Below, in pieces: positions 980 through 22,591 of a stretch of 64,000 nucleotides of DNA (position 1 is its first letter; the number at the start of each line of letters is the position of its first letter). The position numbers and the translations under genes are program-made. The stretch is from Candidatus Aminicenantales bacterium (GTDB lineage: Bacteria > Acidobacteriota > Aminicenantia > Aminicenantales > UBA4085), in contig JBAVVD010000095.1 of assembly GCA_049697115.1 (NCBI GenBank), forward strand, positions 15,797-79,796. Direction: 5' to 3'. The notes under the pieces were generated by a model. That model was not told the DNA's origin. It worked only from the letters and a program-made list of their open reading frames with translations, and ran no database searches.

Positions 980-1080
980 ACGTGATCCCTTTGGGCTTGA
1001 CTCAAAGTCCCGCCTGAGTTACGATAGAAAGGATTATTTTATAATGTTTATTAAAGCAAGAAGTCGAAGAGAAATTCTCA

Positions 1081-4574: not shown

Positions 4575-6092
4575 TTACAGCCTTGCTTCGGTGCGATGTC
4601 TGACGTAGTTCACTCTATATTTCATTTCTTTTAACAGCGAGTAAATCCCTATTTCTTTCAAACACTTGGCGACTTTATCCTGCAACTTGTATGGAGGATT
4701 GATCGGCCACCTCGTCAATTCTGGCCACATTTTGCGGATCATCTCTCTAAAAATCACGGGTTTATAGTAATTGGTATACCTATCATCAACACCTAAAAAG
4801 ATCTCGTAAAGCTTATGGCTGTCATATGGGTCAATCTCTTCAATCGCGATATCGGATTCCGAATTTCCAGTTGCCCCCCAATTTCCAAGCCAATGTTCCC
4901 AGTACAGAAGTGTTAACACATTTAAACCGTACTCTCTGCCCACGGGCAGCAACTCAGCCACTATACTTTCGCCTTGCGTTATCGCGTAGCGGCCTTCTTT
5001 ATATCCCATTTTATAGGCAATTCTGTAACTGTTCAAGTTCTTCGGCTCTTTCCCAAACCGTATGCGACCTATTTCTCCAATGCCCAGAATGTTGACTTTC
5101 TCTGAATGGTCTTTGAAATAAATGTTGTAAATTGTAGGCAGGATTCGTTCCGATGCAAAAAATGTGTTGCTTAAAAAGATTTGCCGGAATTCATCATCAA
5201 CATCGTTCGGTACATCGTGAATATGAAATGGAACCCTGATACTCTCAAAAATCTTTTTTGGAACTGAAATGTCAGGATGACTAGGACCTAAGCCCTGGCT
5301 ATTAATAAAATAATATATTTTATCCTGGATGTCTCTAGTCGCCGCAAGCAGAGTTCTGCTATCCGTTCCTGCGGTCACGGCCATCATGACCGAGTGCCGA
5401 TTCGCCACTGCTCTGATACTTCCCTGCAGAAACGAACAGCTCTTGGACACTGCCTCTTCTAAATCTAACTGTTTTATGGGTTCATTCGGCCAATAACGCC
5501 GAGCTTCACATCTGTTTATATCGAGATAGTGATTGGGCAGGAGGTGTTTGATACCCTCGTAGTATGTTTCATCACCGATCCATTTACAATAGGGGTTCCA
5601 TTTTGAATTCTTCGAATGCGTTGTGTAGTATTCTAAAAAGTCGGGATCGCTTCTCGGTAGTATTTTAGGTTTTGCGAATTTGATCAGCAGATTGGGCTGG
5701 GATCCGCATATGATCTGGTTTTCTTTTGAACAATAGTATATTTCCCTCAAAGCAAGAGCATCATGCAGGATAACAGTTTTCTTATCATCTTTGTATAACA
5801 GCGCATAACTCCCTGCATATCGCTTGATCCATGAAAATAAACCTTCCATGTTGCATGTGCTGACAAATATGTCTTTTAAAATATCGGTGTTTCCCTTTTC
5901 AGGTTCAGCTGGACTAAAAATACTTCCAATTAGCACAATGTTCTTCCTTAAATCCGTAACTCGATTGACCTCAAGATCAGGATGAGCATGAAGATAGTAT
6001 CGGCCTATCTGTAAACACTTCCAGTCGACAAGCGATGTGATAGGAGCCCTACAAAAAAGAAATTGTCGCCGGAACTGAAGCTTTTCGTACAT
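4575..6092 (-). CDS. Asparagine-synthetase-like PP-loop protein (possible sugar amidotransferase), function uncertain
   Basis: 505 aa with an internal VMMAVTAGTDSR motif resembling the SGGxDS PP-loop. No N-terminal Cys nucleophile. Sits inside the polysaccharide locus in the lower-GC block. Confidence 0.3.
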   Translation of the reverse strand: MYEKLQFRRQFLFCRAPITSLVDWKCLQIGRYYLHAHPDLEVNRVTDLRKNIVLIGSIFSPAEPEKGNTDILKDIFVSTCNMEGLFSWIKRYAGSYALLYKDDKKTVILHDALALREIYYCSKENQIICGSQPNLLIKFAKPKILPRSDPDFLEYYTTHSKNSKWNPYCKWIGDETYYEGIKHLLPNHYLDINRCEARRYWPNEPIKQLDLEEAVSKSCSFLQGSIRAVANRHSVMMAVTAGTDSRTLLAATRDIQDKIYYFINSQGLGPSHPDISVPKKIFESIRVPFHIHDVPNDVDDEFRQIFLSNTFFASERILPTIYNIYFKDHSEKVNILGIGEIGRIRFGKEPKNLNSYRIAYKMGYKEGRYAITQGESIVAELLPVGREYGLNVLTLLYWEHWLGNWGATGNSESDIAIEEIDPYDSHKLYEIFLGVDDRYTNYYKPVIFREMIRKMWPELTRWPINPPYKLQDKVAKCLKEIGIYSLLKEMKYRVNYVRHRTEARL

Positions 6093-6137
6093 CTATTGTC
6101 CTTCCATAAGCCAGAGTAAAATATCATGTTTTCATTG

Positions 6138-6980
6138 TCATTGAAGAACCTTGAGGGCCCGATTCTTTATGAAACGAACAACGTCATAATTTCCATAAAC
6201 TCTCGCTCTAAACACTCGCCCAGGCATTGAGGCTCCGGTAAGCTCCCTATGTAACAGGTATGGGCTCGACCTGACACTGTTGAAGCCAGGTACCGTAGTC
6301 ACCGCTCCCTTGTATCCCAAGTCTTTCAGCACTTCTGCCAGATTTATCTCAGGATTGTAATACACCCCAGATGGGTACGCAAAGTATTTAATCTTTACGC
6401 CGGTTACTTTCTCCAATCTCATCTTGTCCTCGGCAATTTCGTATCTTGCTTGAGCGCTATCCCGAAGCTTTCCCAGATTGCAGTGATTCAAGGTGTGCCC
6501 ACCAATGGTAAAACCTTCCTCAACAATCCTTCTCACATCTTCAAAGTTAAAACCTCTCGTTATTCTCCCGGGACCCAGTGTTAAGAACAGTTTCGACCGT
6601 AGAAAATCGGCCTCATCATCCTTTGAGATACCGACAAAACCGGACGTCACGAAAAATGTCGCTGGCAATCCAAGCTCCTTCAGGACTGGTACTGCGTGGG
6701 TGAGCCAACTTTTGTACCCGTCATCGAAAGTAATGACTACATTGATTTTCTTTGATGATAATCTGCCTGCGAAAAAATCTTCGAGGCTTACAACATTCGT
6801 GCTTCGTTTCAGAAAGTAAATATTAGCCTTGAAATTACTGAAGGTCTCGGGCAGTATGTCATGGAAAGTCACGAACCTTGTTACTGGTTGACGCTGAAGG
6901 CGGAGGACTAAATTTCTGATTCTGGAATATCCCAGGTAGTAAAGTAATAAAACACAGAGATCCTGACTACGTATCATCAT
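6138..6980 (-). CDS. Polysaccharide deacetylase (NodB-homology domain)
   Basis: VVITFDDGYKSW…HTLNH motifs typical of carbohydrate esterase family 4. Confidence 0.8.
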   Translation of the reverse strand: MMIRSQDLCVLLLYYLGYSRIRNLVLRLQRQPVTRFVTFHDILPETFSNFKANIYFLKRSTNVVSLEDFFAGRLSSKKINVVITFDDGYKSWLTHAVPVLKELGLPATFFVTSGFVGISKDDEADFLRSKLFLTLGPGRITRGFNFEDVRRIVEEGFTIGGHTLNHCNLGKLRDSAQARYEIAEDKMRLEKVTGVKIKYFAYPSGVYYNPEINLAEVLKDLGYKGAVTTVPGFNSVRSSPYLLHRELTGASMPGRVFRARVYGNYDVVRFIKNRALKVLQ

Positions 6981-7094
6981 GTTTCTACACTTCGAGTAAA
7001 AATCACGGGTGTTAGTAACTCCAGTATGTTTCTAAAACATGCCATGTTGCGAGAAGTCTTACTTATCCTGAATTTCCCTCGTTTTAGGGGCATA

Positions 7095-7225
7095 AGAATT
7101 TCTTTTTAGCCTTCACGCTGGAACGCCCTTCGTTAAGCTCGGAATCGATACCTCCCACCACGAAATGATGATATTCCCGGCCGCGGGTCGCTGTCAAGAA
7201 CAAGGAAATGGCCTGAACAGGCGCC
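7095..7225. repeat. Copy A (truncated, about 130 bp) of an intergenic repeat family shared with copies B and C
   Basis: ttt(c/t)ttttagccttc…cgttaagctcggaatcgatacctccca…atgatgatatt…gtcaag…ggaaatggcc aligns with 11519-11640 and 17836-17960 at roughly 80-85% identity by eye. Confidence 0.7.
7168..7197 (-). promoter_or_regulatory. Sigma-70-like promoter module inside repeat copy A: TTGACA(-35) N18 TATCAT(-10), facing the deacetylase gene
   Basis: Minus-strand TTGACA at 7197-7192 and TATCAT at 7173-7168 with an 18-nt spacer. The identical arrangement is kept in copies B and C. Confidence 0.4.
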
Positions 7226-7539
7226 GATTTGCTGACCGTCGAACGGTTTCATTTACTTTTTCCATAGCGGTTGAGCCAGTTGAAGGAGCACAAGGCCGGC
7301 GGGGGCAGATGATCTTGGCGGAATCGCGGCGAGATGACGATTTGAGATTGAAGGATGGGCCAGAGAAGCAATCCGACGGAGAGATAGGATAGACGCGGCC
7401 CCTTGGTTTTCGAAGGCGGCCGGATCGATGGATGCCCGTCGGCGACGGCATGGCCGACGGCGGTGAGTAGAAGACGGCGAGACCGATCTGGAGGACGCCT
7501 GCTGGAAAGTGCTTCACTTCAGCCTCCACTCCCATCGCG

Positions 7540-8556
7540 TTACAGCCATTTATCATGTTTTTTTCTAAATAGGCCAGGGAATAAAACAGCTGCGCGACAA
7601 ACATAATGAAACGCCAAACTTTTTGCTCCATAATACCAAAGCCATTCTTTCCAGGTGAATGTCTTTTTCCTACTTCGCACTTCATCAGCCAATTCTCTGT
7701 TTCTTGTATGAAAAGCAAGCCGTAATGAACAATCGTTCCAAAAATCTTCTTGCTTGTCTTTAATATGTTGCGGAAGATTGTATTTATTACAGAGGTAAAG
7801 AATAAGTTCTGCGTCGGAAAGTGTGTGTCGCAATACCTTTTTAATATCCTTGCTTCTGGTAGCTGATTCGTCCGTGATGTTATGAGTGGCCATAGACTCA
7901 GGAATATAGTGCAGTTGGGCTTTTGTTGCCATCTCCGCCCAGAGTTGTGTATCACCCATTAGAAAATGGTCACTTTGGTGAAGGTGGGGATCCGATTCAA
8001 TAATCTGCTCACAGAGAGCATGTCGAACCATAACAGCACAAGTTATAATACCACGCGAAAAGTCACCTTTGTTTTCACAAAAGTCAAATATATCCGGGTT
8101 TTTAGGCATCTCCAACTTTCGGTGTTTGATAAAGTCTTTTATCAGTTTCCCGGATTCGACATGATAAACATCGTAACTGGAATACACCAACCCGCATTCC
8201 GGATGGCTTTCCATATAATCCACCTGTTTTTGTAGTTTATCCGGATGAGGCCAGTAATCATCCCCTTCGCAAAAGGCACTGTACTTCCGCTTGTAAGCTT
8301 TCATAGTGCGATAAGTATTTTTCTTCATCCCGACATTTTTATCTGATGTGATCACTCGAATGATATCCGGGTACTTTTTTTGATATTGAAAAACAATCTC
8401 TCGTGTTCCGTCGGTGGAACAGTCCTCACCAATTACCAGCTCAAAAAGAAAGTTCGTTTTCTGCTGTAAAACCCCTTCGATCGCCTGGGCGATAAAAGGG
8501 GCATGATTGTAAGTAATCATCTTGACGCTGACCAAGGGCTCTGTCATATCAAGCAA
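7540..8556 (-). CDS. Glycosyltransferase family 2
   Basis: N-terminal VSVKMITYNHAPFIAQAIEGVLQQ…IGEDCSTDGT and a CEGDDYW (DXD-like) motif. Confidence 0.85.
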   Translation of the reverse strand: MLDMTEPLVSVKMITYNHAPFIAQAIEGVLQQKTNFLFELVIGEDCSTDGTREIVFQYQKKYPDIIRVITSDKNVGMKKNTYRTMKAYKRKYSAFCEGDDYWPHPDKLQKQVDYMESHPECGLVYSSYDVYHVESGKLIKDFIKHRKLEMPKNPDIFDFCENKGDFSRGIITCAVMVRHALCEQIIESDPHLHQSDHFLMGDTQLWAEMATKAQLHYIPESMATHNITDESATRSKDIKKVLRHTLSDAELILYLCNKYNLPQHIKDKQEDFWNDCSLRLAFHTRNRELADEVRSRKKTFTWKEWLWYYGAKSLAFHYVCRAAVLFPGLFRKKHDKWL

Positions 8557-8590
8557 CTCCTATAAGGATCAAACTTAATTATTTATTTTA

Positions 8591-10057
8591 TTATCTGGCG
8601 GTGCCATCTCTCGAAAAAGGTATTCTCTTCCATACCACTTGCCACAGCTCCATAAATGCCGTTAGCCGAAACAGCCTGCATATGCAAACATATAGAACAA
8701 TTCCAATGGGAATTTGTACTACAAGCATGATCCAATGGTTGGGAAATGGCAGCAGTCCGGCCGCATATATTGCGATGCCCATCAGCACGGCCATGATCAG
8801 ATAGGAGAACACGTCACGCATCTGCTCCCATATCGAATATCCGATCAGAACACCCGCATAATAACTATTCAGATAGTAAGCGATGAGGGACATCGCAATC
8901 ATACCATAAATCATCGCGGATATGCCCCATCGCCATGTGACGGCAATGTTGATGACAATCAAAGCCTTCTTGATAATCTCAAGGCGTAAAAATAAATCTG
9001 AACGTCCCAAAGCCATCAGTAAATTTAAATTTATCACGTGTAAAGAATACAGCACGCCGGCAACACAAAATAGCTGCAAATAGGGAATACAAGGAGCCCA
9101 CTTTTCCGTCAACATCACCAGCACCAATGGACGGGCGACTACTGCAAGGCCGATCATCATTGGGAAATTCACGAGGACCAGCACAGTCAACGCCTTTTTC
9201 AATCCCTTTTTCAATCGAGCCGGATCATCCTGGATGCTGGAGAAAACAGGAAAAGTGACCCGGCCGACTATCCCAGCTAATGTATTCTGGGGAATCTCCT
9301 GGAAGGTCTTGGCGCGTGTAAAAAAACCCAGATCAGTCGCCGAGAACAGCTTGCCGATGACCAATAAATAGATATTGTCAAATAGTCGGTTAAGCAAATC
9401 TGAAAACAAGAGGCGCGAGCCAAAACCAAACATTTTCCGTAGGGCGCTAAAGCTGAAGATCATTGCCGGCCGCCAGGAACTGAAAAACCAGAGACAAATA
9501 GTCCGGAAAAGCGCTCGGGATACTTGCTGGACAACCAGGCTCCATACGCCAAAACCAACGGTGGCCAGGGCAACCCCGAGTAAGCCGGACAGTGTGCTGG
9601 CTATCAGGCTTACCTTGGTCAGGATCTTGAAGTTGAGTTGCTTTGTGAAAATGACGCCTTGGATCAAACCAAAGGAATTGATCACGATCTCCAGCGACAG
9701 AGCCCGCGTCAGGGGAGTCAGGATTGGCTGTTTATAGAAAGCAGCAATCCAGGGAGCAACCAGGCACAATAGGCCCGCAGCCGCCAGCCCTACCACGATG
9801 TTGAAATAAAAAATCGAACAGGTGTCGAGTTGTGTGACGTCGCGTTTCTGAATCAGGGCGGCCCCGAACCCACTATCGAGGAATGACTGCGCCAAAGCCA
9901 TGAAGATCATCAGCATCCCGATCAGACCGAACTGCTCCGGAAATAACAGCCGCGCCAGGACGATTCCGATGATAAACCGCACTCCTTGGAGCCCTACAGA
10001 CTCAAGAAAACTCCAGGAAAGAGCATGAAGGGTTTTGGATCTTAGAGAATCGGCCAC
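8591..10057 (-). CDS. wzx: Polysaccharide flippase (Wzx-like, MOP superfamily polysaccharide biosynthesis protein)
   Basis: 488 aa, highly hydrophobic with about 12-14 predicted TM helices. Conserved N-terminal LSWSFLESVGLQGVRFIIGIVLARLL pattern of the O-antigen/EPS flippase family. Confidence 0.75.
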   Translation of the reverse strand: MADSLRSKTLHALSWSFLESVGLQGVRFIIGIVLARLLFPEQFGLIGMLMIFMALAQSFLDSGFGAALIQKRDVTQLDTCSIFYFNIVVGLAAAGLLCLVAPWIAAFYKQPILTPLTRALSLEIVINSFGLIQGVIFTKQLNFKILTKVSLIASTLSGLLGVALATVGFGVWSLVVQQVSRALFRTICLWFFSSWRPAMIFSFSALRKMFGFGSRLLFSDLLNRLFDNIYLLVIGKLFSATDLGFFTRAKTFQEIPQNTLAGIVGRVTFPVFSSIQDDPARLKKGLKKALTVLVLVNFPMMIGLAVVARPLVLVMLTEKWAPCIPYLQLFCVAGVLYSLHVINLNLLMALGRSDLFLRLEIIKKALIVINIAVTWRWGISAMIYGMIAMSLIAYYLNSYYAGVLIGYSIWEQMRDVFSYLIMAVLMGIAIYAAGLLPFPNHWIMLVVQIPIGIVLYVCICRLFRLTAFMELWQVVWKRIPFSRDGTAR

Positions 10058-10222
10058 GATGTTTTATTCCTGTACATGCTAAATAATCCTAAGAATCGCA
10101 ACTTCCGCCTAACGCAAATCAAGCCCTTTCATTAATGAGCATTTCAACCATACTACAATCAACTGTTCCGCGTTTCTTGGGAAATATCGATTTAAAACCA
10201 ATTTACGAAACAAAGAATTATC

Positions 10223-11350
10223 CTATCCCTTCTGAAGAGACAAAATGATGTCACAAATGGTCTCGACTTCAGAAAGTTCCAGGCCATCGTAAATCGGCAA
10301 TGTCAGTATGCGGTCAGCAACGCGACGGGCGACGGTCAAGGGATCCTTTATCGAAACACTTCGGTAGCAGGCGTAATCGCAAATTAAGGGGTAAAAATAT
10401 CGGCGAGAAAATACGTTGTATTGTTTGAGAGCCTCATATAATGCATCCCGGCTCATTCCAAACTCTTGTTCGTCCACTTCGACAGGCATGTAAACATGGT
10501 TGTGCTTGATATCAGGAGATAGAGCTGGTAGAAGATGAATACCCGGTATTTCCTTGAGGCGCTGCCGATATAAATCAGTGATCTTACCTCGCTTGAGAAT
10601 TATTTCTTCCAGATATTTTAGAACCAGACTTCCCATTAAGGATTGCATTTCGTTCATTTTGGCATTGGTGCCGGGCATGACCACTTCGAGCTCGTTTTTG
10701 AAACCGAAGTTCTTTAAATAGTCGAATAATCCTTTGAGCCCTGACTCTTTGAATGTGAGCAGTCCACCCTCGATGGAGTGGAACGACTTGGTCGCGTGAA
10801 AGCTGAACATACTCAGATCGCCAAAATGAGCGATAGACTTGTTGCCGATTTTTACGCCGAAAGCGTGAGCGGCATCATATATAAGCTTCAAATTATGCCG
10901 TCTTGCAATATCGGCTAATGCATTGAGTTTACAAGGGTAACCGTAAACGTGAACTGCCAAAATGGCTGTTGTCCAGGGGGTGATTGCCGCTTCGACCTTT
11001 TCCGGGTCAATGGTGCAATAATCTGGTTCGATGTCCACAAAGACGGGCCTGATCTTGTTCCAAAACAACGCGTGGGTTGTTGCCACAAACGTAAAAGGAG
11101 TGGTGATAACCTCTCCCGAGATTCCCATCCCCTGCAATGCGATTTGAAGAGCCAGGGTCCCGTTGTTAAAAAGACAGATATTGTCAGTCTCGAAAAAGCT
11201 GGACAATTCATGAGTAAACCGCTGTAAAATGGGCCCATTGTTTGTTAACCATCCTGTCTCCCAGATTTCGTTAAGTCCCTGGCAAAATTCCTCCACCGGT
11301 GGTAAAAAGGGCCTAGTTACAAAAATAGGTTTCTCAAAAGGTTTTATCAT
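10223..11350 (-). CDS. DegT/DnrJ/EryC1/StrS-family PLP-dependent sugar aminotransferase
   Basis: DAAHAFG…GDLSMFSFHATKSFHSIEGG (PLP lysine) and a C-terminal LTLPIYDGLELSEVETI motif. Confidence 0.85.
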   Translation of the reverse strand: MIKPFEKPIFVTRPFLPPVEEFCQGLNEIWETGWLTNNGPILQRFTHELSSFFETDNICLFNNGTLALQIALQGMGISGEVITTPFTFVATTHALFWNKIRPVFVDIEPDYCTIDPEKVEAAITPWTTAILAVHVYGYPCKLNALADIARRHNLKLIYDAAHAFGVKIGNKSIAHFGDLSMFSFHATKSFHSIEGGLLTFKESGLKGLFDYLKNFGFKNELEVVMPGTNAKMNEMQSLMGSLVLKYLEEIILKRGKITDLYRQRLKEIPGIHLLPALSPDIKHNHVYMPVEVDEQEFGMSRDALYEALKQYNVFSRRYFYPLICDYACYRSVSIKDPLTVARRVADRILTLPIYDGLELSEVETICDIILSLQKG

Positions 11351-11511
11351 AAATCTCCTTTATACATATTATGACTACTATTAAGATTCAGTTCCACCTT
11401 AAGAAAGGCTACAGGCACAAATACACTTTCTCGGTTTCTCCCCATCACCGCGCCTCCGCTTCAGTCTTTTTTATCCACTTCACCATACACCCTACACCGT
11501 GCTTTAGTAGA

Positions 11512-11845
11512 TGATTAAGGGTATTTCCTTTTAGCCTTCGCGCAGAAACGCTCTTCGTTAAGCTCGGAATCGATACCTCCCATAACAAAATAATGATATT
11601 ATCGGCCTGGGATCAATGTCAAGGAAATGGCCGCGAAGAGGGTCATCCGGCCGCATCATCGTTCCGGACGACTACGAAATCCCCCAAAAGACGATAGCCC
11701 TCCCTCCCCCTCTTGAAATCACCTGTCCTTAATAATATTCCCCGCTCTCCTCGGCCGCCATCAAGGCGACCGGCTCGAAGACATGCGACGGAGGCGGCTT
11801 CTCGGCAACAAATGTCAACTTCAGAGAATCGATCACGGGTAGCGT
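11512..11845. repeat. Copy B (about 330 bp) of the intergenic repeat family
   Basis: Near-colinear match to 17830-18165 across the whole length (…gccgcatcatcg(t/g)tccggacga…cttgaaatcacctgt…ccccgctctcctc(a/g)gccgccatcaaggcgacc…acatgcgacggaggcggcttctcgg…) and to copy A over the first about 130 bp. Confidence 0.75.
11593..11622 (-). promoter_or_regulatory. Sigma-70-like promoter module in repeat copy B (TTGACA N18 TATCAT), facing the aminotransferase/flippase operon
   Basis: Minus-strand TTGACA at 11622-11617 and TATCAT at 11598-11593, 18-nt spacer. About 235 nt upstream of the start at 11350. Confidence 0.4.
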
Positions 11846-12066
11846 TATTCGCGGGGAAATGTTAATATCAACAGGTTGGAAGACTTCTGGAGCTATGCGA
11901 AAGAACGGTCGACAAAGTTTCGCAGTCTGTCGGCGGAGAAGTTACTTCCATATCACATAGAAATGGAATTTCAATATAAGATAGGAGAGGAAGCATCTCC
12001 ACCAGGCTCATTCAGAATCTCTACGATTTCGCGTAAAAATCATTTAAAATTCTCTAAAAATAACTA

Positions 12067-12984
12067 ATGTCTCAAAAGCATCACATTTGCGTGTGCATCT
12101 GCACATACAAAAGGCCTAAACAGCTCGATCGCTTGCTGTGGAAACTGGAAAAACAGGAAACCGGAGGTATTTTTGACTACTCGATCGTCATTGTGGATAA
12201 CGACAGGTCTGAATCTGCGCGGCTGACCGTGGAATCCCATGCGGGTCAATCAAATATTGCGATCAGCTATCATGTGGAGCCGCAACAAAACATCGCTTTG
12301 GCGAGGAACAGAACCATAGAGAATGCCAACGGTGATTTTCTTGGTTTCATTGATGACGATGAGTGGCCGGACTCGAGGTGGCTTTTCAATCTCTTCGGGG
12401 CGATCAATCGCTATAAATCGGACGGGATTTTGGGCCCGGTCTTACCCTGCTTTGAAAAAGAGCCACCCCAATGGGTATTAAAAGGACGCTTCTTTGATAG
12501 ACCCGCTCACCCGACAGGACATGTTCTGGAGTGGAAGAATACACGGACAGGAAATGCGCTGTTAAGAAGAGACATCTTTAAAGATGATCGTGAGTGGTTT
12601 CATCCTCGATTTGGCAGAGGAGGTGAAGACCGCGATTTCTTTAGGAGAAAAATTGGAGAAGGACATGTTTTCGTTTGGTGCGACGAGGCCCCCGTTTTTG
12701 AGACGGTGCCGCCGGAACGCTGGGGACAAAAAGTCCTGATGAAAAGGGCGCTCTTGAGAGGGAAAATGGCCCTCCTTTCCTCAGAATCTGGTCCCCAGAG
12801 TATTCTGATCTCGGTGGGAGCCGTGGCCATTTATTCTGTTTGTTTGCCGCTTCTCTTTGTTCTTAGCCCTATTATCGGTTATGACGTTTTCATGAAATAT
12901 CTGATCAAGAATTGTGACCACCTCGGTAAAATATTAGCGTTTCTAAAAATCGATTTGGTGAGAACAAAATACGTCAGTTTATGA
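12067..12984 (+). CDS. Glycosyltransferase family 2
   Basis: ICVCICTYKRPKQLDRLLWKL…SIVIVDNDRSE and FIDDDEW (DXD) motifs. Confidence 0.8.
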   Translation: MSQKHHICVCICTYKRPKQLDRLLWKLEKQETGGIFDYSIVIVDNDRSESARLTVESHAGQSNIAISYHVEPQQNIALARNRTIENANGDFLGFIDDDEWPDSRWLFNLFGAINRYKSDGILGPVLPCFEKEPPQWVLKGRFFDRPAHPTGHVLEWKNTRTGNALLRRDIFKDDREWFHPRFGRGGEDRDFFRRKIGEGHVFVWCDEAPVFETVPPERWGQKVLMKRALLRGKMALLSSESGPQSILISVGAVAIYSVCLPLLFVLSPIIGYDVFMKYLIKNCDHLGKILAFLKIDLVRTKYVSL

Positions 12985-13374
12985 CGAGGAGGTGAAAGTG
13001 TACGCTAGCCTGCGTAACATGACCCTCTACAAATAGAGTCTCTATCCTCCCTGCGAATAATAATGTACATTCCTGGGTGAAGTGCCCCCCAAAACCTTGC
13101 CCGATCAGCGACAGGTGCTATATGCAAAGTCAAGTGATTTTAAATAGTATTTGAAAGTATCCGTTGGCGGCACGGTGGCGTTCGCGGGCCGCCATAGGAA
13201 ACGATGCTCATGGGCCCCAGGGAAGGGCGTCCTTCGAGTTTCTCGCATGGTCGCCCTGCAGTTCATATCTCTCGTGATTATATGTCATTATTTGCACGCT
13301 GACTTTCATGCAAGCAACTTTGAAATCGGGCAAATTGGAGACGAATGGCTCCTCTAGACTCTGTACCCTTGTCT

Positions 13375-14427
13375 TTACTTGTTCGGCGGTTTGCTTTCGA
13401 TGATTGCCCAATTAGGTTTTCTCCCGCTGTAAATGCGGGTTGGCTCAAACGGAATGATCGCGGTGAGTTGCAAGCCGGCCATCGCCAGTAAAGCCCGATA
13501 CTCTGCTTCGGTGCGTTCCCGACCACGTGTGAGCAACAGCATGCTCAAATCGCTGCTGACCGTTACTGGAGCATCGACAACACGCTCCGGCATAATCTCC
13601 TCAATCAGCAAGAGTGTGCTGTCATCTCGCATCGCGGCGCGGCAGTTGCGCAGGATTTGCGCTGCGCGCTCATCATCCCAATCGTGAATGATGTTGGACA
13701 TGAGATAGAGCGCGCCACCCGGAGGAACGGTGTCGTGAAAGAAATCTCCAGCTATTGTTTGACAGCGATCCGCCACACCATTTTGGGCGAGATAATGCTG
13801 GGCTTCAACCACCACCTTGGGCATATCAAAGATAATACCCCGAAGATGGGGATGGGCGCGCAAAATGGCGATGAGCAGCGCGCCATTTCCTCCACCCACA
13901 TCAACGATGGTGCTGGCCCTAGAGAAATCATAAGCTGCGACGACGCCCGCTACGCGATCATCAATCCCCCGGCTCAAAAGATCGTTGAAGAGGGCGCCAA
14001 TGTGAGGATGTTGTGCAAAATAATCAAAGAAGGACATCCCAAAGATGTGATCAAAAGCAGGTTCGCCTTTCTGAACGGCGTGGAGCATCCCTTGCGCTGC
14101 ACGATAGTTCACTTCACCAATATAGAGAATTCGGTTACGCATCGAGTCAGGATGATCGGAGCGAAGGAGGTCGCCCAGAGGCGAGAGCCGAAAGCCTCCC
14201 TCGTTTTCCTGGACCAGCAAGTTCAGCACGACCATCATTCGAAGAAACCGATAAAGTGCCTGTGGAGACGCGTTCACTGCCTGGGCCAGCTCGTGTGCTT
14301 GTTTGGGGCCATTCGCCAAGTGATCGGCAACCCCAAGTTTCACAGCCGTATACAGCACCTGGGTGAGTGAAAATCCGCCAGCCATCTGGCGTAAGGTGTC
14401 AGTTAGTGATTCTTGAGTAGAAGGCAT
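13375..14427 (-). CDS. SAM-dependent O-methyltransferase (class I, COMT-like with N-terminal dimerisation domain)
   Basis: VVDVGGGNGALLIAIL…IIFDMP motif I region and overall O-methyltransferase family-2 architecture. Confidence 0.75.
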   Translation of the reverse strand: MPSTQESLTDTLRQMAGGFSLTQVLYTAVKLGVADHLANGPKQAHELAQAVNASPQALYRFLRMMVVLNLLVQENEGGFRLSPLGDLLRSDHPDSMRNRILYIGEVNYRAAQGMLHAVQKGEPAFDHIFGMSFFDYFAQHPHIGALFNDLLSRGIDDRVAGVVAAYDFSRASTIVDVGGGNGALLIAILRAHPHLRGIIFDMPKVVVEAQHYLAQNGVADRCQTIAGDFFHDTVPPGGALYLMSNIIHDWDDERAAQILRNCRAAMRDDSTLLLIEEIMPERVVDAPVTVSSDLSMLLLTRGRERTEAEYRALLAMAGLQLTAIIPFEPTRIYSGRKPNWAIIESKPPNK

Positions 14428-14505
14428 CGTTTTGTCTCCGGTTAGATAGTTTTATCTTGGCAAAATAGAGGCATGAGCAGCACAACTCCTTTTTCATCCG
14501 ACCTC

Positions 14506-14844
14506 CTATAAAACCGACCGAGGTGAAGCTAGTCCGCACATGTCTTCACTCGTGTAAGATAACAGTCTCTCTCTAACTTCCTGCCCATGCTCAACCACAA
14601 AGCGAATGATCCGACAAATTTTGCCGACCTCTTCTGACCCGACCGCTGTGCCCGTGGGTAGGGACATCACACCTTGCACCAGCTTTTCCGTTTCAGACAG
14701 CATGAGCCCTGCATGGGGAAAATAGGAACGATAAGGCTCCATATGATGATAAGCTGGATAAAAGTAGCGCCGGGCCAGGACGTTTTCAGCATGCAGAACT
14801 TGAACTAGTCGAGTTCGAGAGCTCTTAAGTATACAAATTCCAAT
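14506..14844 (-). pseudogene. 3' fragment of a DegT-family aminotransferase (C-terminal about 110 aa only)
   Basis: Translation …LHAENVLARRYFYPAYHH MEPYRSYFPHAGLMLSETEKLVQGVMSLPTGTAVGSEEVGKICRIIRFV matches the conserved C-terminus of DegT enzymes (compare RRYFYP…LTLP in the 10223-11350 gene). Upstream frame closes at a stop near 14845. No N-terminal part is present. Confidence 0.5.
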
Positions 14845-14928
14845 TTATTACCTCCTCGCATGCTTGCATTCGTCTCATTCAGACGGATCGTGGAACAAGC
14901 TCTTCGCCATGATCCGCATGTAGCCTTA

Positions 14929-15834
14929 TTATCCCATTTCGCCACTCCTATATGCCGGAAAGTAATCTGTCCTGGGAATAGCCTTTGCATCCACAAGTGC
15001 TGTGTATTTTGCCTGATCAAAAACCCTCCCGCACAAATAGGCCGTTCGAGTTCCAGTAGACCATCCGCGCTTGAATTGGCTCAAGCCATCCGTCCTGTCA
15101 TTTTGAACACCGGAGGTTCCGCCCCAATCGAGCCACCGGACTTTGCCAGAGAAGTACTGGAGGTTGGACCAGTACAGTGCATACGATACCCCCAATTTGT
15201 GACCGACTTCGCTGGCCCCCATCAGGTGACCATAGGCCACTTCCCCTTGCACAAAGCAAAGGGCTGTCCCAATTGTCGTGTTCTGATGGAAGGCGCGGAA
15301 CATTACGAGTCCCGGAATACTAAGTTGCTTGAGAAAAGCCGCTCTCGAAAACGTCCTGAGTCCCCTGACGTTATGTCTGTCAGTCAAAGTAGCGTAAAGG
15401 GCCGTCCATTCGTCAATGTGCTGCCTTGGGTCCTCACACGTTTCTGTACGAATAATCTCTAACGCTTTTCGACTGTAATAGCGATGATGCCGGGAGACAA
15501 TCTCATTTATGGGACGATGAAGGTCAGCGACATAGTGTTCCTTGAAAGAGATGACGACATCAAAGCAGCGATGCAGACAGGCCTCATCATATTCTCCAAA
15601 AGGGTCAGCGACCAGGGCCAGACTTACCAGATCGTCTCCTAGACCGTCCAAATCAGCGGCAAGCTGAGACCAGTCCTGACAAGCAAATAAAGGGTAACAC
15701 CCCATGGCATCACGGTAGGGAAACCCCGGTATCGGGCGCTCCAAGATCCACCCCCCGCAACGAGGCAATTCGCGCGGGGTGCCGAACTCGCTCAATGATT
15801 CTGCGTATTGAGGGTGCAAGTATCCCGTCACCAT
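14929..15834 (-). CDS. FemAB/CelD-like (Acetyltransf_6 / GNAT-fold) acyltransferase
   Basis: About 300 aa with …TTIGTALCFVQGEVAYGHLMGASEVGHKLGVSYALYW…WLDWGG pattern typical of BioF2-like/FemAB-type N-acyltransferases in polysaccharide loci. Overlaps the upstream gene by 7 nt. Confidence 0.4.
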   Translation of the reverse strand: MVTGYLHPQYAESLSEFGTPRELPRCGGWILERPIPGFPYRDAMGCYPLFACQDWSQLAADLDGLGDDLVSLALVADPFGEYDEACLHRCFDVVISFKEHYVADLHRPINEIVSRHHRYYSRKALEIIRTETCEDPRQHIDEWTALYATLTDRHNVRGLRTFSRAAFLKQLSIPGLVMFRAFHQNTTIGTALCFVQGEVAYGHLMGASEVGHKLGVSYALYWSNLQYFSGKVRWLDWGGTSGVQNDRTDGLSQFKRGWSTGTRTAYLCGRVFDQAKYTALVDAKAIPRTDYFPAYRSGEMG

Positions 15835-16859
15835 TCCAGTGCCTCTGCAACCAGCCGAGCCATCCGCTCCATATCGTCGCCATCATATCTTTGGTCACAG
15901 GGTAAGGTCATGATCTCGGATGCCAGCTTATGACTGTCGCTGTACTCTTCGGGAACCACTCCCTGAATTGACCAATGAACAGGAGGATAGATCTCGTGGG
16001 CAAATAACGCTTGCCTGACTTTATCACGTTCTTTCGTGCGGATCGGAAATCCAAGCGGAACGATCTGATCAGGTAGACAGGGAAAGAGTGCCAAGCTGCC
16101 CAATTTGTCAGCCAGGGCCTGATAGTTGTCCACTCGCCTCTGGGTGATCGTCGAGTAGTCAAAGCTATTCAGCAATAGCATCTTGGAGAGTTCGCTCATA
16201 GCGAAGGGTCCGATGGGAGAATTCGGCTCAGTCTTTTGAAACAGTTCAAACCACTTCCGTGTTCCTCCATGAACATCGAATTCCCTTCGTAAGAGAGAGG
16301 CTAAAAAGGCACTCAGCCACCACTCTGGGGACGGGGTTTCAAAATCAACACCTTGAAAATGGATATCACGATTGATACGCAGAATCCCACCATCCGGTAC
16401 GCCTACAAACTTTCGAGGACTGAACAGGACGAAATCGGAAAACTGGCCCACATTTCCGGATAGAAGGGCCTGGCCTGCGTCTTCCAAAACCCAGGCCCCA
16501 CGCTCTCTTGCTTGAACCGCACATGTTGAATCGCAGCTAAAACCAAAATAATCTATCAATATCACCAGGTCGCCTTGCTGCACCTGGTTAAGCCAATCAA
16601 ACGAGGGAATCGCCAAATCACAGTTGACCTGATAGAATCTTACACTTGTCATACTGTTTTTGGCGGCATCCAGTATTGTATGACACAAGTACGACGGGCA
16701 CCAGACTTGTTGAGGGGATAGCTGATACACCAGAAGCCAAATGCCGGATCGCGCATTGACCAGGTAAATGCTTCGGTTGGATAGAAAGGGCGGCGTGCTT
16801 GCGTCCGAGTCCGGCGTTGCTTGTAGGCCGAACATGCCGCCGATGATTTTTGTCGTCAT
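15828..16859 (-). CDS. DegT-like PLP-dependent aminotransferase (divergent)
   Basis: EDAGQALLS…FSPRKFVGVPDGG (PLP-Lys region) and C-terminal MTLPCDQRYDGDDMERMARLV. 4-nt overlap with the downstream glycosyltransferase. Confidence 0.6.
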   Translation of the reverse strand: MTTKIIGGMFGLQATPDSDASTPPFLSNRSIYLVNARSGIWLLVYQLSPQQVWCPSYLCHTILDAAKNSMTSVRFYQVNCDLAIPSFDWLNQVQQGDLVILIDYFGFSCDSTCAVQARERGAWVLEDAGQALLSGNVGQFSDFVLFSPRKFVGVPDGGILRINRDIHFQGVDFETPSPEWWLSAFLASLLRREFDVHGGTRKWFELFQKTEPNSPIGPFAMSELSKMLLLNSFDYSTITQRRVDNYQALADKLGSLALFPCLPDQIVPLGFPIRTKERDKVRQALFAHEIYPPVHWSIQGVVPEEYSDSHKLASEIMTLPCDQRYDGDDMERMARLVAEALEW

Positions 16860-17617
16860 GCCTTTTTCTTGAATTCCAAGGACCGACTCTCCCCGAGTCT
16901 CAGACTCTCTTTAAGCAACCTTTCTCTAGTCCACGATATCCACGCAGCGGCCAATCGCCTTCCCAAGATACCCTTGCGCTTGCGCCAAGTCCCCTCCATT
17001 AGATGAACACCATATTCCCCAAAGCGTCTCCATTTGGTAGGATCGCAGACATTTTTGGGAAAGAGCACTTTTATCTGGTTGGCAGCATCCGGATACTCTG
17101 CCATCGTCCTCGAAACTAATCCGGGCCCGGTTGTACAGAAGCCATAAAAATTTTTTCGATACATTCTTGGAATCGATCTCATCATTGCTTGCGCCCACTT
17201 CGGGCTCTTCTGCGCTCTCACGCAATTTTTAATGATCGCATCGATAAAGGGGTGCCCTGCCGCTGCGCCAAACGCATAGTTACCAATTTCCCAGTCCATC
17301 CCATACTGCTGGCGCAAGAACTTATATATCGTTAACTCTTCGAAGGGAAATACGCAACCGAAGTCCGATAGATCCGCCAGACTAGACGCCAGGAACACAT
17401 CAAGGTCGAGGTAAAACCCACCGAAGTGATAAACCGCCAAATACCGGAAGAAATCGTACCGCTGGATATGAACGTGAAACGAATCGAATACGCTCCGGTA
17501 TTCCGGAAAATGCATATCGATGAATTCTTCAACTTGCGTATCATCGAAAAACAAGTATTCGAAATCAGGATTGAGTAGTCTTACATTTACGACAGCAGCT
17601 TTCGCTTGCAGAGGCAA
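16856..17617 (-). CDS. Glycosyltransferase with DXD sugar-binding region (GT32/OCH1-like)
   Basis: DFFRYLAVYHFGGFYLDLDVF motif characteristic of the Gly_transf_sug family. Confidence 0.65.
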   Translation of the reverse strand: MPLQAKAAVVNVRLLNPDFEYLFFDDTQVEEFIDMHFPEYRSVFDSFHVHIQRYDFFRYLAVYHFGGFYLDLDVFLASSLADLSDFGCVFPFEELTIYKFLRQQYGMDWEIGNYAFGAAAGHPFIDAIIKNCVRAQKSPKWAQAMMRSIPRMYRKNFYGFCTTGPGLVSRTMAEYPDAANQIKVLFPKNVCDPTKWRRFGEYGVHLMEGTWRKRKGILGRRLAAAWISWTRERLLKESLRLGESRSLEFKKKA

Positions 17618-17829
17618 ATCCAGACTCTTACCCGTCTGGATGATACGCCTTGGGATTCTTGAATTCAGAAATTATCTCCCTTTGAGTATCTATCGGCCGG
17701 CTGCCAACGCCATTGGCCATTCAGACAAACAGATCCGCGCATCACGGTCTTCTCCCCGTAAGCCTTCTCAAGGCCCTAGACAGCCGCGCGTCGGATTGCG
17801 AGACACGTAAAGTCTCAATCTCGCGGCTA

Positions 17830-18165
17830 GGGTATGGGAATTTCCTTTTAGCCTTCGAGTAGGAACGCTCTTCGTTAATCTCGGAATCGATATCTCCCAT
17901 TACGAGATAATGATATTCGCGGACTGGGATCGATGTCAAGTACACGGAAATGACCACGAAGAAGGCCATCCGGCCGCATCATCGGTCCGGACGAACAAGA
18001 AATCCCCCTCAATAAAACCCCATCCGCTCTTGAAATCACCTGTTAAAAATACTCCCCGCTCTCCTCAGCCGCCATCAAGGCGACCTTGGTGAAGACATGC
18101 GACGGAGGCGGCTTCTCGGTCACAAATTGCAAGCGGCTGTTTTTATTGAGGACTGGAGAAGTGAA
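17830..18165. repeat. Copy C (about 335 bp) of the intergenic repeat family
   Basis: See copies A and B. Track ORFs inside it (17742-17969 -, 17910-18092 +, 18043-18243 -) are most likely non-coding, because copies differ by indels and mostly non-synonymous changes. Confidence 0.75.
17910..17939 (-). promoter_or_regulatory. Sigma-70-like promoter module in repeat copy C (TTGACA N18 TATCAT), facing the GT32-like/DegT/FemAB/OMT operon
   Basis: Minus-strand TTGACA at 17939-17934 and TATCAT at 17915-17910, 18-nt spacer. Confidence 0.4.
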
Positions 18166-18411
18166 TATAACCGATGCCGGCCTCACAGCTCTCTGGGGGT
18201 ATATGCCACCGGCATCAGAGGCTGTTAGGCTTGAAAATGTCACTTTACAGGTGGTATATTAATGGGGGGGTAGGTCATCTTAGCGCCGGTGCTTTGGGCT
18301 TTAAGAAGATCTGAGATAAAAAGTTTGGGCAGACAAATAGCTCCTGAGGAACATGTTCCGGGCGGCCATGAGGGCGGCGGCTAAAAAAGCAGTTAAAAAA
18401 AGTATTAAATC

Positions 18412-19569
18412 GTGCAAGCACTATTGAATGATTACAGGCGCTTCCTTGGGGCCTTTTGTATTGCTATGACGATAGGGCTTCTTTTTGTGGGTCTTTGGCC
18501 CTTTGCCTTTTCTCCCAAGAATAGGGCTTATTGGTTTTCCGATGGAAAGGGCCTGTATTTTGATGGGAAGAAGAGGCACTGGAAGCTTTCGGTCGGAGGC
18601 ATCGCCTATTCACCTTCTCTAATAAGCTCATTGCAAATTCCACCGACGGAAAAGGGCTCATTCACCATCGCGATTCATCTTCAGCCGGCGGAGGAAGTGA
18701 CTGGAGGAGTCCCCCAGATTCTTTCTTTGGTGGAGAAATCGGGACATGAAGTGCTGCATCTGGGCCAATGGAAGCAATCCCTGATTGTGCGATGGTTCAG
18801 CTCCGAACAAGGGGGGAGAAGGAAGTTGCGAGAAATAGGCGTCGGCGGGGCGCTATTAAAAGAGAAAGCCCGATGGCTGACAATTGCGTCGGATCAAGCG
18901 GGCACGACCATCTATGTGGACGGTGAAGTAGCGAAGCGTTTTCAAGGGACAGCGTTGCTGGCTAAAGGAAGCTCAATCAGAGGCTATTATGTTGTGTTAG
19001 GCAATTCGCCGGAGGCGAAGAGCCCCTGGACGGGCACTATCATGGCTTTGGCCCTGTACGAACGGTCTTTAAGTGAAGGGAAAGTTTTTGAGAGTTGGAA
19101 ACGATCAAAAGAGAGTTTCAATGATTCGAATATCGCTCATGATGGATTGATATCGGCTTTTAATTTTAAAGAAGGGGAGGGGACGCGTGTTTCTGACCTT
19201 TCCGGAAATGGAAACGCCATCGTGGTTCCGGCGCGTATTGCTTTCAAGAGCAGGATGCTCGAGTGGCCTGATAAAAGGTTCCGATCCAGCGCTTCGATGG
19301 TGGAAGACATGGTCGCTAATGTTTTTGGGTTTGTGCCTTTTGGGTTTGTCTTTTTATTGTGGCTCAGGGGTACAAAGCGATGGAATCGCAGGCGTTCTTA
19401 TCTATTTGTCATTCTGATAGGAGGATTGATCGGCCTGGGGATCGAGATGGCGCAGGCTTTCATCCCAGCCCGCGATTCGTCTCTGGCTGATGTCATCTGC
19501 AACACGGTGGGCACTATGCTGGGTGTCATGGGCTTTCATTTCTTCTGCGGTTCCAAATGGGGGCAATAA
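18412..19569 (+). CDS. Membrane protein with LamG/concanavalin-like lectin domain and C-terminal VanZ-like domain
   Basis: N-terminal TM segment, then a central …TIYVDGEVAKRF…YYVVLGN (LamG-like) region. C-terminal polytopic segment LLWLRG…LIGLGIEMAQAFIPARDSSLADVICNTVG typical of VanZ. Confidence 0.55.
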   Translation: MQALLNDYRRFLGAFCIAMTIGLLFVGLWPFAFSPKNRAYWFSDGKGLYFDGKKRHWKLSVGGIAYSPSLISSLQIPPTEKGSFTIAIHLQPAEEVTGGVPQILSLVEKSGHEVLHLGQWKQSLIVRWFSSEQGGRRKLREIGVGGALLKEKARWLTIASDQAGTTIYVDGEVAKRFQGTALLAKGSSIRGYYVVLGNSPEAKSPWTGTIMALALYERSLSEGKVFESWKRSKESFNDSNIAHDGLISAFNFKEGEGTRVSDLSGNGNAIVVPARIAFKSRMLEWPDKRFRSSASMVEDMVANVFGFVPFGFVFLLWLRGTKRWNRRRSYLFVILIGGLIGLGIEMAQAFIPARDSSLADVICNTVGTMLGVMGFHFFCGSKWGQ

Positions 19570-19657
19570 TAGTTGTCGTACGCTCTTATAAAATCCATTT
19601 CCGGCCTCTTTAACTCAGCCATTGCATGACGGAGGATAATATGAATAAACGCATCGC

Positions 19658-20395
19658 GTGCATCCTGTTTTTACTTATAGCGGCGATCCCCACGAAAAAG
19701 TGGACCTCGCTTTCATCGCCGAGGGCTACGCGGCCGAGGATAAAGATAAGTTCAAAACCGACACGGACCGGTTCGCGGGATATCTCTTCGGTATCGAACC
19801 CTATAAAAGCGCCCGGGACAAGTTCAACGTCTATGGCGTATTACGTCCGTCCCCGGAACGGGCGATGGACGAGCCGCGCCAGGGCGTTTACAAGAAAACC
19901 GTCCTCAATGCCTCGTTCAACGCTTTCGACCTCGACCGTTATATGCTCATTGAGAAAGACCACCGGCTGCACGAGATCACAGCCCGGGTGCCGTACGACG
20001 CCATCATCGTCCTCGTCAACAGCAAGCGCTACGGAGGAGGGAGCATTGGCTTCGATTACTGCGTGACCACGGTCGACCATGCCTCAAGCCGACGGGTCTT
20101 CGTTCACGAGCTCGGCCATTCCTTCGCCGGTTTGGCCGATGAGTACTATGCCTCGGAGGTCGCCTACAACGATTTCTATCCCAAGGGGGAACACCCATTC
20201 AATCCCATGAAGGAATTTGAGAGTCACGAACCGGGGAATAAAAAAGATGATCCAATCGGCTTTGAAGCCGCTATTAGAGGCTTATTCAGGGGCTTCGATG
20301 GTCTAGAAAGATTGAGTAAATTTGATAGATATCCAAATCTGACGGTATATCCATTAGCCGTTTTTCGCGATATTTATCCAAAAGGAAAGGTCTAA
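19658..20395 (+). CDS. Zinc metallopeptidase, M64 (IgA-peptidase-like) family catalytic domain; signal peptide lies in another frame upstream (see findings)
   Basis: KVDLAFIAEGY…VHELGHSFAGLADEY (HExxH) plus downstream Glu/Tyr context typical of Peptidase_M64. Confidence 0.75.
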   Translation: MHPVFTYSGDPHEKVDLAFIAEGYAAEDKDKFKTDTDRFAGYLFGIEPYKSARDKFNVYGVLRPSPERAMDEPRQGVYKKTVLNASFNAFDLDRYMLIEKDHRLHEITARVPYDAIIVLVNSKRYGGGSIGFDYCVTTVDHASSRRVFVHELGHSFAGLADEYYASEVAYNDFYPKGEHPFNPMKEFESHEPGNKKDDPIGFEAAIRGLFRGFDGLERLSKFDRYPNLTVYPLAVFRDIYPKGKV

Positions 20396-20502
20396 CAACA
20401 GCATCAACCTGACGCGGATTAGCCGCATCAGGTTTTTTGGCATCGGTGATTGCTCGCGCAGGTTATGCAAATCGTTAGAAGGCTGAAAGAGAAGTCTCAG
20501 TT

Positions 20503-21168
20503 ATGGACCAAAACATCGAACATACAGAGTTAATAAATAAACGCAAATGGGACTTAAGAGCAGCCACATTCAGCCAAAAGCGCTTTGATTACTTTCGCTG
20601 GATGCAGAAGAGGGCCATACGACTCATCGACTTAAGACCCGGCATCCATTTCCTCGACATTGGTTGCGGTACGGGGTGGGCTGTGCGTTACGTTGCCAGC
20701 CTTCTGCGGTATGAGGGTGAGTTCTACGGCATCGATATTTCCAAAGCCATGATTGAAATAGCTCGGGTTCAATCTCATAACTTTAGGAACGTGCATTTTT
20801 ATGGGGCTAATGCCGAGCAGCTTCCTCTCGATAGCGAATATGTTGACTGCGCCATTTGCACCAATTCTTTTCATCACTATTTGAATCCATCTAAAGCCTT
20901 GGCCGAGATTCACCGCGTCCTGGCAGCAGACAGCCGCATACATATCATGGATTTGACCACTGATGATTTTCTCATGAGATTCATTGACGACCTGTTCAGA
21001 AAGAAAGAGCGCGAACACGTTAAGTTCTATGGCAGTAAGGGATACCAGGATATGTTTGAGGCGGCACAGCTAAAATACCTAGGCAGTAAATTGCTTGTGT
21101 ACCCCATTAAAGTCCACATAGCAAAGAAACAATCGCCAACGTTGGTTCAACCTCAGCCGAGATATTAG
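20503..21168 (+). CDS. Class I SAM-dependent methyltransferase
   Basis: FLDIGCGTGW motif I and overall Methyltransf_11/25-like layout. Confidence 0.75.
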   Translation: MDQNIEHTELINKRKWDLRAATFSQKRFDYFRWMQKRAIRLIDLRPGIHFLDIGCGTGWAVRYVASLLRYEGEFYGIDISKAMIEIARVQSHNFRNVHFYGANAEQLPLDSEYVDCAICTNSFHHYLNPSKALAEIHRVLAADSRIHIMDLTTDDFLMRFIDDLFRKKEREHVKFYGSKGYQDMFEAAQLKYLGSKLLVYPIKVHIAKKQSPTLVQPQPRY

Positions 21169-22572: not shown

Positions 22573-22591
22573 GTTAATCCTCGCTATTGAC

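Follow-up and report, generated by a model that had tools for sequence, protein, structure and literature searches.

We analysed 64,000 nucleotides of DNA from Candidatus Aminicenantales bacterium (contig JBAVVD010000095.1, positions 15,797 to 79,796; hereafter the window), in which an exopolysaccharide (EPS) locus contains three copies, named A, B and C, of an intergenic repeat. Our preferred reading, to which we give a probability of about 0.62, is that these repeats are remnants of the right (oriIS) end of a rolling-circle insertion sequence (IS) of the IS91/ISCR type and that they carry outward promoters into EPS operons. On this reading, three EPS transcription units are probably driven, each by a solo oriIS end. 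What the repeat is made of, the order and orientation of its parts, and the conservation of the promoter are observed. On the minus strand, B and C read as the last 35-40 codons of a transposase gene, its stop codon, about 105 bp of non-coding DNA, the promoter, about 70 bp more and the tip of the element. Beyond the tip of each copy lies unrelated host DNA, followed by a co-oriented polysaccharide operon.

A preliminary description of this DNA had claimed three homologous segments, and both a repeat search of the window and local alignments confirm them at 74-82% identity. The repeat search returned a family of three on the minus strand (7088-7213, 11513-11638 and 17830-17955; 74-81% identity) and additional blocks common to B and C only. 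In the local alignments, A matches C (7213-7088 with 17955-17830) and B (7221-7098 with 11641-11523) at 81% identity in both cases, and B matches C (11813-11516 with 18127-17833) at 82% over 304 nt. The sequence downstream of the promoter, which had been described as a conserved leader, has a 29-mer core, TATCGATTCCGAGMTTAACGAAGRGCGTT, which the window contains exactly 3 times, where chance alone predicts 0 occurrences. Copy A (7089-7221, minus strand), delimited by the alignments, comprises the last ~133 bp of the presumed IS end, that is, promoter and tip, and is found between a GT2 gene (7540-8556) and a deacetylase gene (6138-6980), inside a co-directional string of genes. Copies B and C occupy divergent intergenic regions. 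Copy B (11520-11854, minus strand) reads as a right end truncated at its 5' side and lies between GT2 and DegT genes; tblastn with the IS91-type protein fragments P0379 and P0408 extends it to 11836-11854, and it is orthologous to a remnant in a related contig, L015. Copy C (17831-18144, minus strand), upstream of a GT32 operon, is a 5'-truncated right end apparently of the same IS type as B. It is not an assembly artefact, because the independent Logan assembly L024 (SRR27973968), from the same population, which is 99.98% identical to window positions 12213-23797, holds it too.

The far part of B and C is, judged from its translation, the end of an IS91-family (Y2/HUH, rolling-circle) transposase gene. 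The remnant in B (11732-11836, minus strand; MIDSLKLTFVAEKPPPSHVFEPVALMAAEESGEYY), supported by profile matches, is followed by a stop codon at 11729-11731, and that in C (18046-18144, minus strand; ...RLQFVTEKPPPSHVFTKVALMAAEESGEYF) by a stop codon at 18043-18045; the two tails share 69% identity. A profile of the shared 35-aa tail open reading frame (ORF) matched 507 proteins among 1.84 billion representative proteins, 93 of them at E<=1e-10, and the match nearly always sits at the C-terminal end of the matched protein. The longer of these proteins read ...CPKCGG.MKVVAFITD..VDRIIDHLKLTFVAEKPPPSHVFEQVALMAAEESGEYF, with motifs in the order ...YYGLYANAHRGKVRKA...KGWAEMIRKVYEVDPMVCPKCGGSMKVVAFITD..VDRIIDHLKLRFVAEKPPPSHVFEQIALMAAEE.PEYF, and contain the domains Zn_Tnp_IS91 (PF14319, 2e-9) and Y2_Tnp (PF04986, 4e-7); they match the NCBIfam models transpos_IS91 (NF033538, 6e-27) and ISCR clade Ia. 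When P0379 was compared with plasmids by tblastn, the genes matched were annotated as IS91 family transposases. Since profile matches, domains and plasmid comparison agree, B and C begin in the end of an IS91-family transposase. The preliminary description had judged the copies unlikely to be coding, which holds for the leader and fails for this far part of B and C.

Copy A has no transposase remnant, and tblastn with P0379 and P0408 revealed only the two tails in the window, with no intact tnpA and no terIS. All three copies are truncated at the 5' side, and they are therefore remnants and not complete elements. Several of the related proteins (P0379, P0364) are internal-deletion derivatives in which the zinc-binding domain is joined directly to the end of the Y2 domain, and the lineage with the tail ...KPPPSHVFEQVALMAAEESGEYF seems to be represented mainly by fragments that are annotated as hypothetical proteins. 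The best plasmid match by tblastn, a transposase of Trichlorobacter lovleyi with 45% identity, is too distant and offers no comparable 3' region. Copy C had no blastn match in plasmids; a degenerate back-translated pattern of the tail gave a single chance match in viral contigs, inside a phage gene; and the exact 20-mer core of the leader gave only chance matches inside coding genes when searched in genome and metagenome contigs.

The non-coding sequence 3' of the transposase stop also belongs, as far as translated alignments can tell, to the element. In unrelated metagenome contigs, ORFs that read through this stop codon remain colinear with the repeat beyond it, through the promoter and into the leader. 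Six of them (P0381, P0401, P0434, P0439, P0450 and P0476) continue as ...EYE(Q/L)RVISRG..., comparable to QVISRG/A in B and C, and the tail of P0401 matches B at 11709-11650 with 70% identity over 20 aa (E 4e-6). Alignments of P0408 and P0477 with C reach position 17908, past the -10 box. For P0445 (LVAGGVDDERDAERSGPSKKRNFL) the three best matches in the window are the leaders of A, C and B, and 46 residues separate its tail from its leader part, compared with 47 codons in C; P0440 contains SLDSELN.

The end of the homology among A, B and C resembles an oriIS. In ISCR27, oriIS reads GCGGTTGAACTTCCTATACC, with the core GAACTTCCTATACC, and lies 236 bp 3' of the transposase stop (PMC8894482). The putative tip of C (17831-17844, minus strand; GAAATTCCCATACC, followed by CTAG) agrees with this core, the last 14 nt of that oriIS, at 12 of 14 positions and is placed 199-212 bp after the transposase stop codon, at the boundary of the homology. 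The positionally homologous tip of A (7089-7102, minus strand; GAAATTCTTATGCC, followed by CCTA) agrees at 11 of 14, and the presumed terminal ~67 bp of the IS in B (11520-11586, minus strand) ends in GGAAAT------ACC, with a 6-nt deletion relative to C. The oriIS region of ISCR1 measures 232 bp (PMC6218425), and the corresponding stop-to-oriIS distance in a sphingomonad IS91 is 167 bp (PMC5737581). From the shared oriIS-like 3' boundary together with the colinear read-through ORFs, the leader would therefore be the terminal ~67-72 bp of the element, that is, the oriIS tip of an IS91/ISCR-type IS. Elements of the IS91 family have no inverted repeats, make no target duplications and carry oriIS 3' of tnpA, and their last ~82 bp are enough for transposition (PMC13181058, PMC5737581). 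No inverted repeats relating the ends of the three units were found in the repeat search, which fits a family that by nature has none, and this end biology also explains why the three copies share one 3' end despite their different 5' truncation points.

Several points weigh against this identification. No intact copy of the IS was seen, and the best 150 of the 507 tail matches are all <=223 aa. Membership of the non-coding part in the element is drawn from translated fragments, several of whose matches are weak singly (E 0.04-0.2). For the 14-mer oriIS core, a match with two mismatches is expected by chance ~0.4 times per window, as estimated from the match probability (4.09 times at up to 3 mismatches); we give weight to the match in C for its position, which coincides with the boundary of the homology and is as far from an IS91-type stop as an oriIS should be. 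The target tetranucleotide abutting oriIS in the IS91 family is 5'-CTTG or GTTC (PMC13181058), but the tips are followed here by CTAG (C), CTTA (B) and CCTA/CTAA (A), of which B and C retain the T at position 2 and none is an exact match. The subterminal palindromes are weak, consisting of a 4-bp hairpin, AACG-N5-CGTT, in all copies and a tip dyad, GGAAATTCC / AGAAATTCT, and the DNA of the oriIS region folds no better than shuffled sequences. Finally, that the promoters are used is something that we infer. In addition to these features, a GC-rich dyad (TCCGGAMCGATGATGCGGCCGGA, then GGCCGGAYGRCC) lies 5' of the -35 box in B (11640-11690), C (17960-18010, minus strand) and L015 (680-720); this conserved dyad could be a place at which a protein binds the IS end or the promoter.

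In every copy, 18 nt separate an exact TTGACA from TATCAT: in A the promoter so predicted spans 7168-7197 (-35 box 7197-7192, -10 box 7173-7168), in B 11593-11622 (11622-11617 and 11598-11593) and in C 17910-17939 (17939-17934 and 17915-17910), always on the minus strand, at a distance of 67-72 nt from the tip and directed outwards, towards the EPS operons. A scan of 16 kb (4000-20000) for hexamers of the sigma-70 type, a consensus that may not be the one used in Aminicenantes, identified them as the only sites scoring 11/12, and between them and the first genes there is no other site of at least 9/12 on the same strand. The promoters described earlier and their aim at downstream operons were thus recovered as the top three sites in 16 kb, and the long 5' untranslated regions (UTRs) of about 180-285 nt are likewise borne out: the predicted start site precedes the first gene by ~181 nt in A, ~236 nt in B and 235-286 nt in C.

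Two related contigs found through the DegT gene tell how the promoter has fared elsewhere. In L015, whose DegT is 93% identical, a remnant syntenic with B lies between GT2 and DegT; it retains ~190 bp from the stop codon to the -10 box, including TTGACA-N18-TATCAT, and lacks 78 nt of the transposase tail as well as the whole 73-nt tip. In L008, with a DegT of 91% identity and a different upstream gene, TTGTTCTTGACA-N17-TATCAT is retained; the tip region is only ~58% identical and the distal 5' UTR is homologous to that of B. A, B, C, L015 and L008 agree at each of the 12 positions of the hexamers, with a spacer of 17 or 18 nt. Hexamers that are kept while the spacer varies and ORF frames break form the pattern expected of a used promoter, and not that of a coding sequence or a leader RNA. 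Conservation of the hexamers amid lost or scrambled surroundings argues that the promoter is used, and suggests that at the DegT site it has been domesticated. The repeat is not present in DegT relatives of <=88% identity (L009-L014, L016 and L025-L029), nor in GT2 relatives at 79% identity (L017-L023).

According to the model that we propose, RNA polymerase would start ~7 nt past TATCAT, inside the IS end (about 7161, 11586 and 17903 on the minus strand), and the transcript would cover the last ~67 nt of the element, i.e. the leader, before reading on into the EPS genes. Such read-out would be analogous to that of the POUT promoters of ISCR1 into downstream resistance genes. Conservation of the leader among the copies would then reflect the end that the transposase recognises and nicks, or recent copying, and not a role as regulatory RNA; relatives would be expected to share an element end made of TTGACA-N17/18-TATCAT plus the tip ...GAAATTCCNATACC. 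Because L008 and L015 carry orthologous remnants, the insertion at the DegT site appears to be old and to predate the split from these two lineages. Later insertion of related copies could account for A and C, and so could copying or gene conversion; the three tips, 90-97% identical among themselves against 58% in L008, fit each of these histories equally.

Would the same remnants be silent? If TTGACA-N18-TATCAT were unused, the repeats would be inert debris of IS91-type ends and the EPS genes would be transcribed from elsewhere or by read-through. All the evidence on the identity of the IS serves this explanation equally well, promoter use is read from sequence, read-through from B could cover copy A within its co-directional gene string, and promoter-like sites are not commoner in the scanned region than in shuffles (24 found against 19.9 expected). 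We nevertheless consider inert debris unlikely, since the three copies are precisely the three best sites in the 16 kb, all three aim into operons whose leader regions offer no alternative site of at least 9/12, and the hexamers are intact in L015 and L008, in which both sides have been deleted or have diverged to ~58% identity. A different proposal, made in the preliminary description, is that of a dedicated, duplicated promoter-plus-leader cassette, whose leader would recruit a NusG paralogue (as in ops/JUMPstart, UpxY or LoaP systems) or act as another cis-regulatory RNA. The promoter half of this idea stands, as the promoter aims at the EPS units and its hexamers are conserved; the unit itself, though, is to all appearance the oriIS end of an IS. 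The first ~65 transcribed nt are 90-97% identical among copies, above the flanking sequence, long untranslated leaders precede polysaccharide operons, which often need antitermination, and GGAGGTATCG agrees with the ops core GGCGGTAGCG at 8/10 positions, with an A3:T8 pair replacing C3:G8 (compared with PMC5995543). The ops signal requires, however, G4, G5, A7, G8 and the TG pause dinucleotide, and in E. coli G5A abolishes RfaH recruitment (PMC5995543). Here the leader sequence is GGAGGTATCGAT in A and B, and in C it is GGAGATATCGAT. Both versions lack the TG pause dinucleotide, C carries a change equivalent to G5A, and a search of the EPS region that allowed 1 mismatch did not find the ops 12-mer GGCGGTAGNNTG. 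The ~80-nt leader folds like shuffled sequences (z 0.2-0.3), the covariance check gave compensatory changes at 0/17 predicted pairs, Rfam has no match at the repeats, either at gathering thresholds or at E<=10, and no NusG/KOW match, whether RfaH-, UpxY- or LoaP-like, was obtained among the 50 largest ORFs of the window. In addition, the leader forms the tip of an IS91-type element; L015, the closest syntenic relative, does not have it, and in L008 it is scrambled. The rest of the DegT 5' UTR, compared among B, L015 and L008, shows no convincing consensus structure. An antitermination signal or regulatory leader RNA is for these reasons very unlikely. There is likewise no support for the suggestion that the plus-strand genes might be served by the ~200 additional bp in B and C: this stretch consists of the transposase tail and non-coding IS DNA and has no plus-strand promoter-like site.

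Start-codon ORFs occur in the same frames in all three copies, and all indels between B and C are multiples of three, as would be expected if the repeats encoded small proteins, either of 22-24 aa (MGGIDSELNEER...) in the leader or of 33-39 aa (...GHF.LDIDP.P.IS...GRYRFRA) across the promoter. Against this, substitutions between B and C are spread over the three codon positions without periodicity (22:19:19), and nearly every difference in the leader ORF is non-synonymous. Moreover, A starts with GTG and C has lost the stop, L015 and L008 have interruptions or frameshifts in both frames, and there is no Pfam match; we give the small proteins hardly any credence. A miniature inverted-repeat transposable element, put forward earlier as the finding that would overturn the cassette, was rejected, because the units have no inverted termini and their flanks differ without duplication. 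What was found is debris of a mobile element all the same, apparently of the IS91 type, a family that by nature has neither inverted repeats nor target duplications; the left ends, beside which a target duplication would be looked for, are missing here. The idea that the whole repeat is an antisense or decayed IS3 transposase gene was rejected as well: the rve_3 match is confined to 18127-18262, and the IS3-family transposase of the related contig L028 has no significant match anywhere in the window.

A more ambitious version of the IS91/ISCR reading is that the truncated units are minimal non-autonomous rolling-circle modules, mobilised in trans by a full-length transposase located elsewhere, which would carry adjacent EPS genes with them and bring a ready-made, strong promoter. 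One-ended IS91-type transposition needs only oriIS, which is the ground for this possibility. The occurrence of the tail in 507 protein clusters, with none of the best 150 full length, the several internal-deletion derivatives and the 90-97% identity of the three tips are compatible with it, and we rate such mobilisation as rather improbable. If it were true, it would amount to an ISCR-like system of gene capture and expression, by which EPS cassettes are shuffled in environmental bacteria that are uncultivated.

The genes that surround the repeats are those of a polysaccharide locus. The source is a metagenome-assembled genome; the database proteins P0001 and P0121 are 100% identical to proteins encoded in the window, and exact look-ups of its DegT and deacetylase proteins found no entry. 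A polysaccharide export set, with BBP2_2 porin, Wza-like and Wzc-like genes, occupies the start of the window (23-4254). According to Pfam, the transcription unit 3' of A (4575-6980, minus strand) encodes a polysaccharide deacetylase and a 505-aa protein, the latter (4575-6092, minus strand, downstream of the deacetylase) without a Pfam match at E<=1e-3; the unit 3' of B (7540-11350, minus strand) encodes a DegT aminotransferase, a flippase (Polysacc_synt_3) and a GT2; and the unit 3' of C (13375-17668, minus strand) encodes GT32, DegT-like, FemAB/GNAT-like and O-methyltransferase proteins. Pfam has no match to six-frame fragments of the sequence that adjoins each of the three copies upstream. 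A 38-aa ORF (MPLKRGKFRISKTSRNMACFRNILELLTPVIFTRSVET; 6977-7093, minus strand) overlaps the tip of copy A by 5 nt, and its stop overlaps the start of the deacetylase gene (ATGA); it has no homology in B or C. The GT32 ORF was listed from a TTG at 17617, and the automatic gene call in L024 gives a shorter product of 219 aa. The alignment with 270-aa homologues (MNSRIPKRIIQTGKSLDLPLL...) begins at a CTG at 17668, which has AAGGGAG 7 nt upstream and is the probable start, or what the alignment suggests may be a degraded ATG. A sigma-70-family factor of 280 aa (regions 1.2, 2, 3 and 4) is encoded within 42039-46452 on the minus strand, just 3' of dnaK-dnaJ, and is unrelated to the repeats.

The truncated edge of copy C is abutted by a frameshifted C-terminal remnant of an IS3-type (rve_3) transposase on the plus strand (18127-18262; Pfam PF13683 positions 40-67, E 1e-9; ...FIEDWRSEYNRCRPHSSLG / YMPPASEAVRLE). 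The region between the VanZ/LamG gene and the GT32 operon thus appears to be nested IS debris, and the contact between the two remnants points to repeated IS activity there. In L028 (1414-2588), an intact IS3-family element (HTH_Tnp_1 and rve) comes directly after a DegT relative of 84% identity, which is another sign that IS elements frequent these loci. Relatives with a 79%-identical GT2 (L017-L023) have blocks with Wzy and deacetylase or MBOAT and Asn-synthase instead of the DegT-flippase block, as compared with window positions 4575-12984, and in relatives with a DegT of 84-88% identity (L009-L014) this gene stands behind Wzy_C, with 50-100 nt between genes. Gene content compared in this way indicates that the polysaccharide locus is strongly mosaic among relatives, which is typical of such loci.

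What does this mean for the locus? The donation of outward promoters by IS ends is a documented mechanism, and it replaces the reading of the repeats as an antitermination leader or riboregulator of a new sort. Active promoters would mean that this Aminicenantales bacterium transcribes three consecutive EPS blocks from domesticated ends of the IS91/ISCR type. Outward promoters of this family have so far been studied mostly beside resistance genes in clinical gamma-proteobacteria, and the same architecture in an environmental polysaccharide locus would widen the known reach of ISCR-like elements. IS-end promoters would also give a handle on the assembly and expression of mosaic polysaccharide loci. 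For annotation, the tail …KPPPSHVFEQVALMAAEESGEYF marks a widespread and mostly fragmentary IS91 subgroup whose fragments are called hypothetical small proteins by metagenome pipelines.

Among known systems, ops/JUMPstart-RfaH shares with the repeats a short conserved sequence in the long 5' leader of polysaccharide operons and a partial resemblance in the ops core; it differs in that here the ops consensus and the pause TG are unmet, the window holds no NusG paralogue among the ORFs searched and the sequence is an IS tip lacking in close relatives. In ISCR28 'sandwich' structures, according to the passage of PMC12772301 that cites them, remnant ISCR ends with extra oriIS flank captured genes. 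Our locus resembles them in having truncated oriIS-bearing remnants beside cargo genes and several oriIS per locus, and differs in having no intact partner element in the window and no evidence of mobilisation of EPS blocks. With the oriIS of ISCR27 (PMC8894482) the tip of C shares 12 of 14 positions and a similar distance from the stop (~212 bp against 236 bp), whereas the upstream half of the 20-mer (GCGGTT) is unmatched, B has its 6-nt deletion and A has 3 mismatches. As in IS91, IS801 and IS1294, the tail derives from proteins with Zn_Tnp_IS91, Y2_Tnp and NF033538, and the ends are asymmetric, without inverted repeats and with oriIS 3' of tnpA (PMC13181058, PMC5737581). Unlike these, the subgroup found here has a ~50-aa C-terminal extension past the NF033538 model, the flanks are CTAG, CTTA and CCTA, and no terIS, intact tnpA or clear subterminal palindrome pair was seen. 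The oriIS/POUT arrangement of ISCR1 in complex class 1 integrons is the closest known system. There, as here, an IS91-related transposase is followed by ~200-240 bp of non-coding DNA and an oriIS end, and promoters in the non-coding stretch, in our case a predicted one, fire outward into variable co-oriented genes (PMC6218425). The oriIS region of ISCR1 has two outward promoters (PCR1-1/PCR1-2, POUT), which raise downstream expression 13- to 15-fold (PMC6218425), and their -10 boxes score 4/6 and 3/6; each of our copies has a single predicted promoter of 11/12. In comparison with ISCR1, the transposase here is almost wholly deleted, leaving solo ends, and the cargo consists of polysaccharide genes of an uncultivated Aminicenantales bacterium in place of the resistance genes of gamma-proteobacteria.

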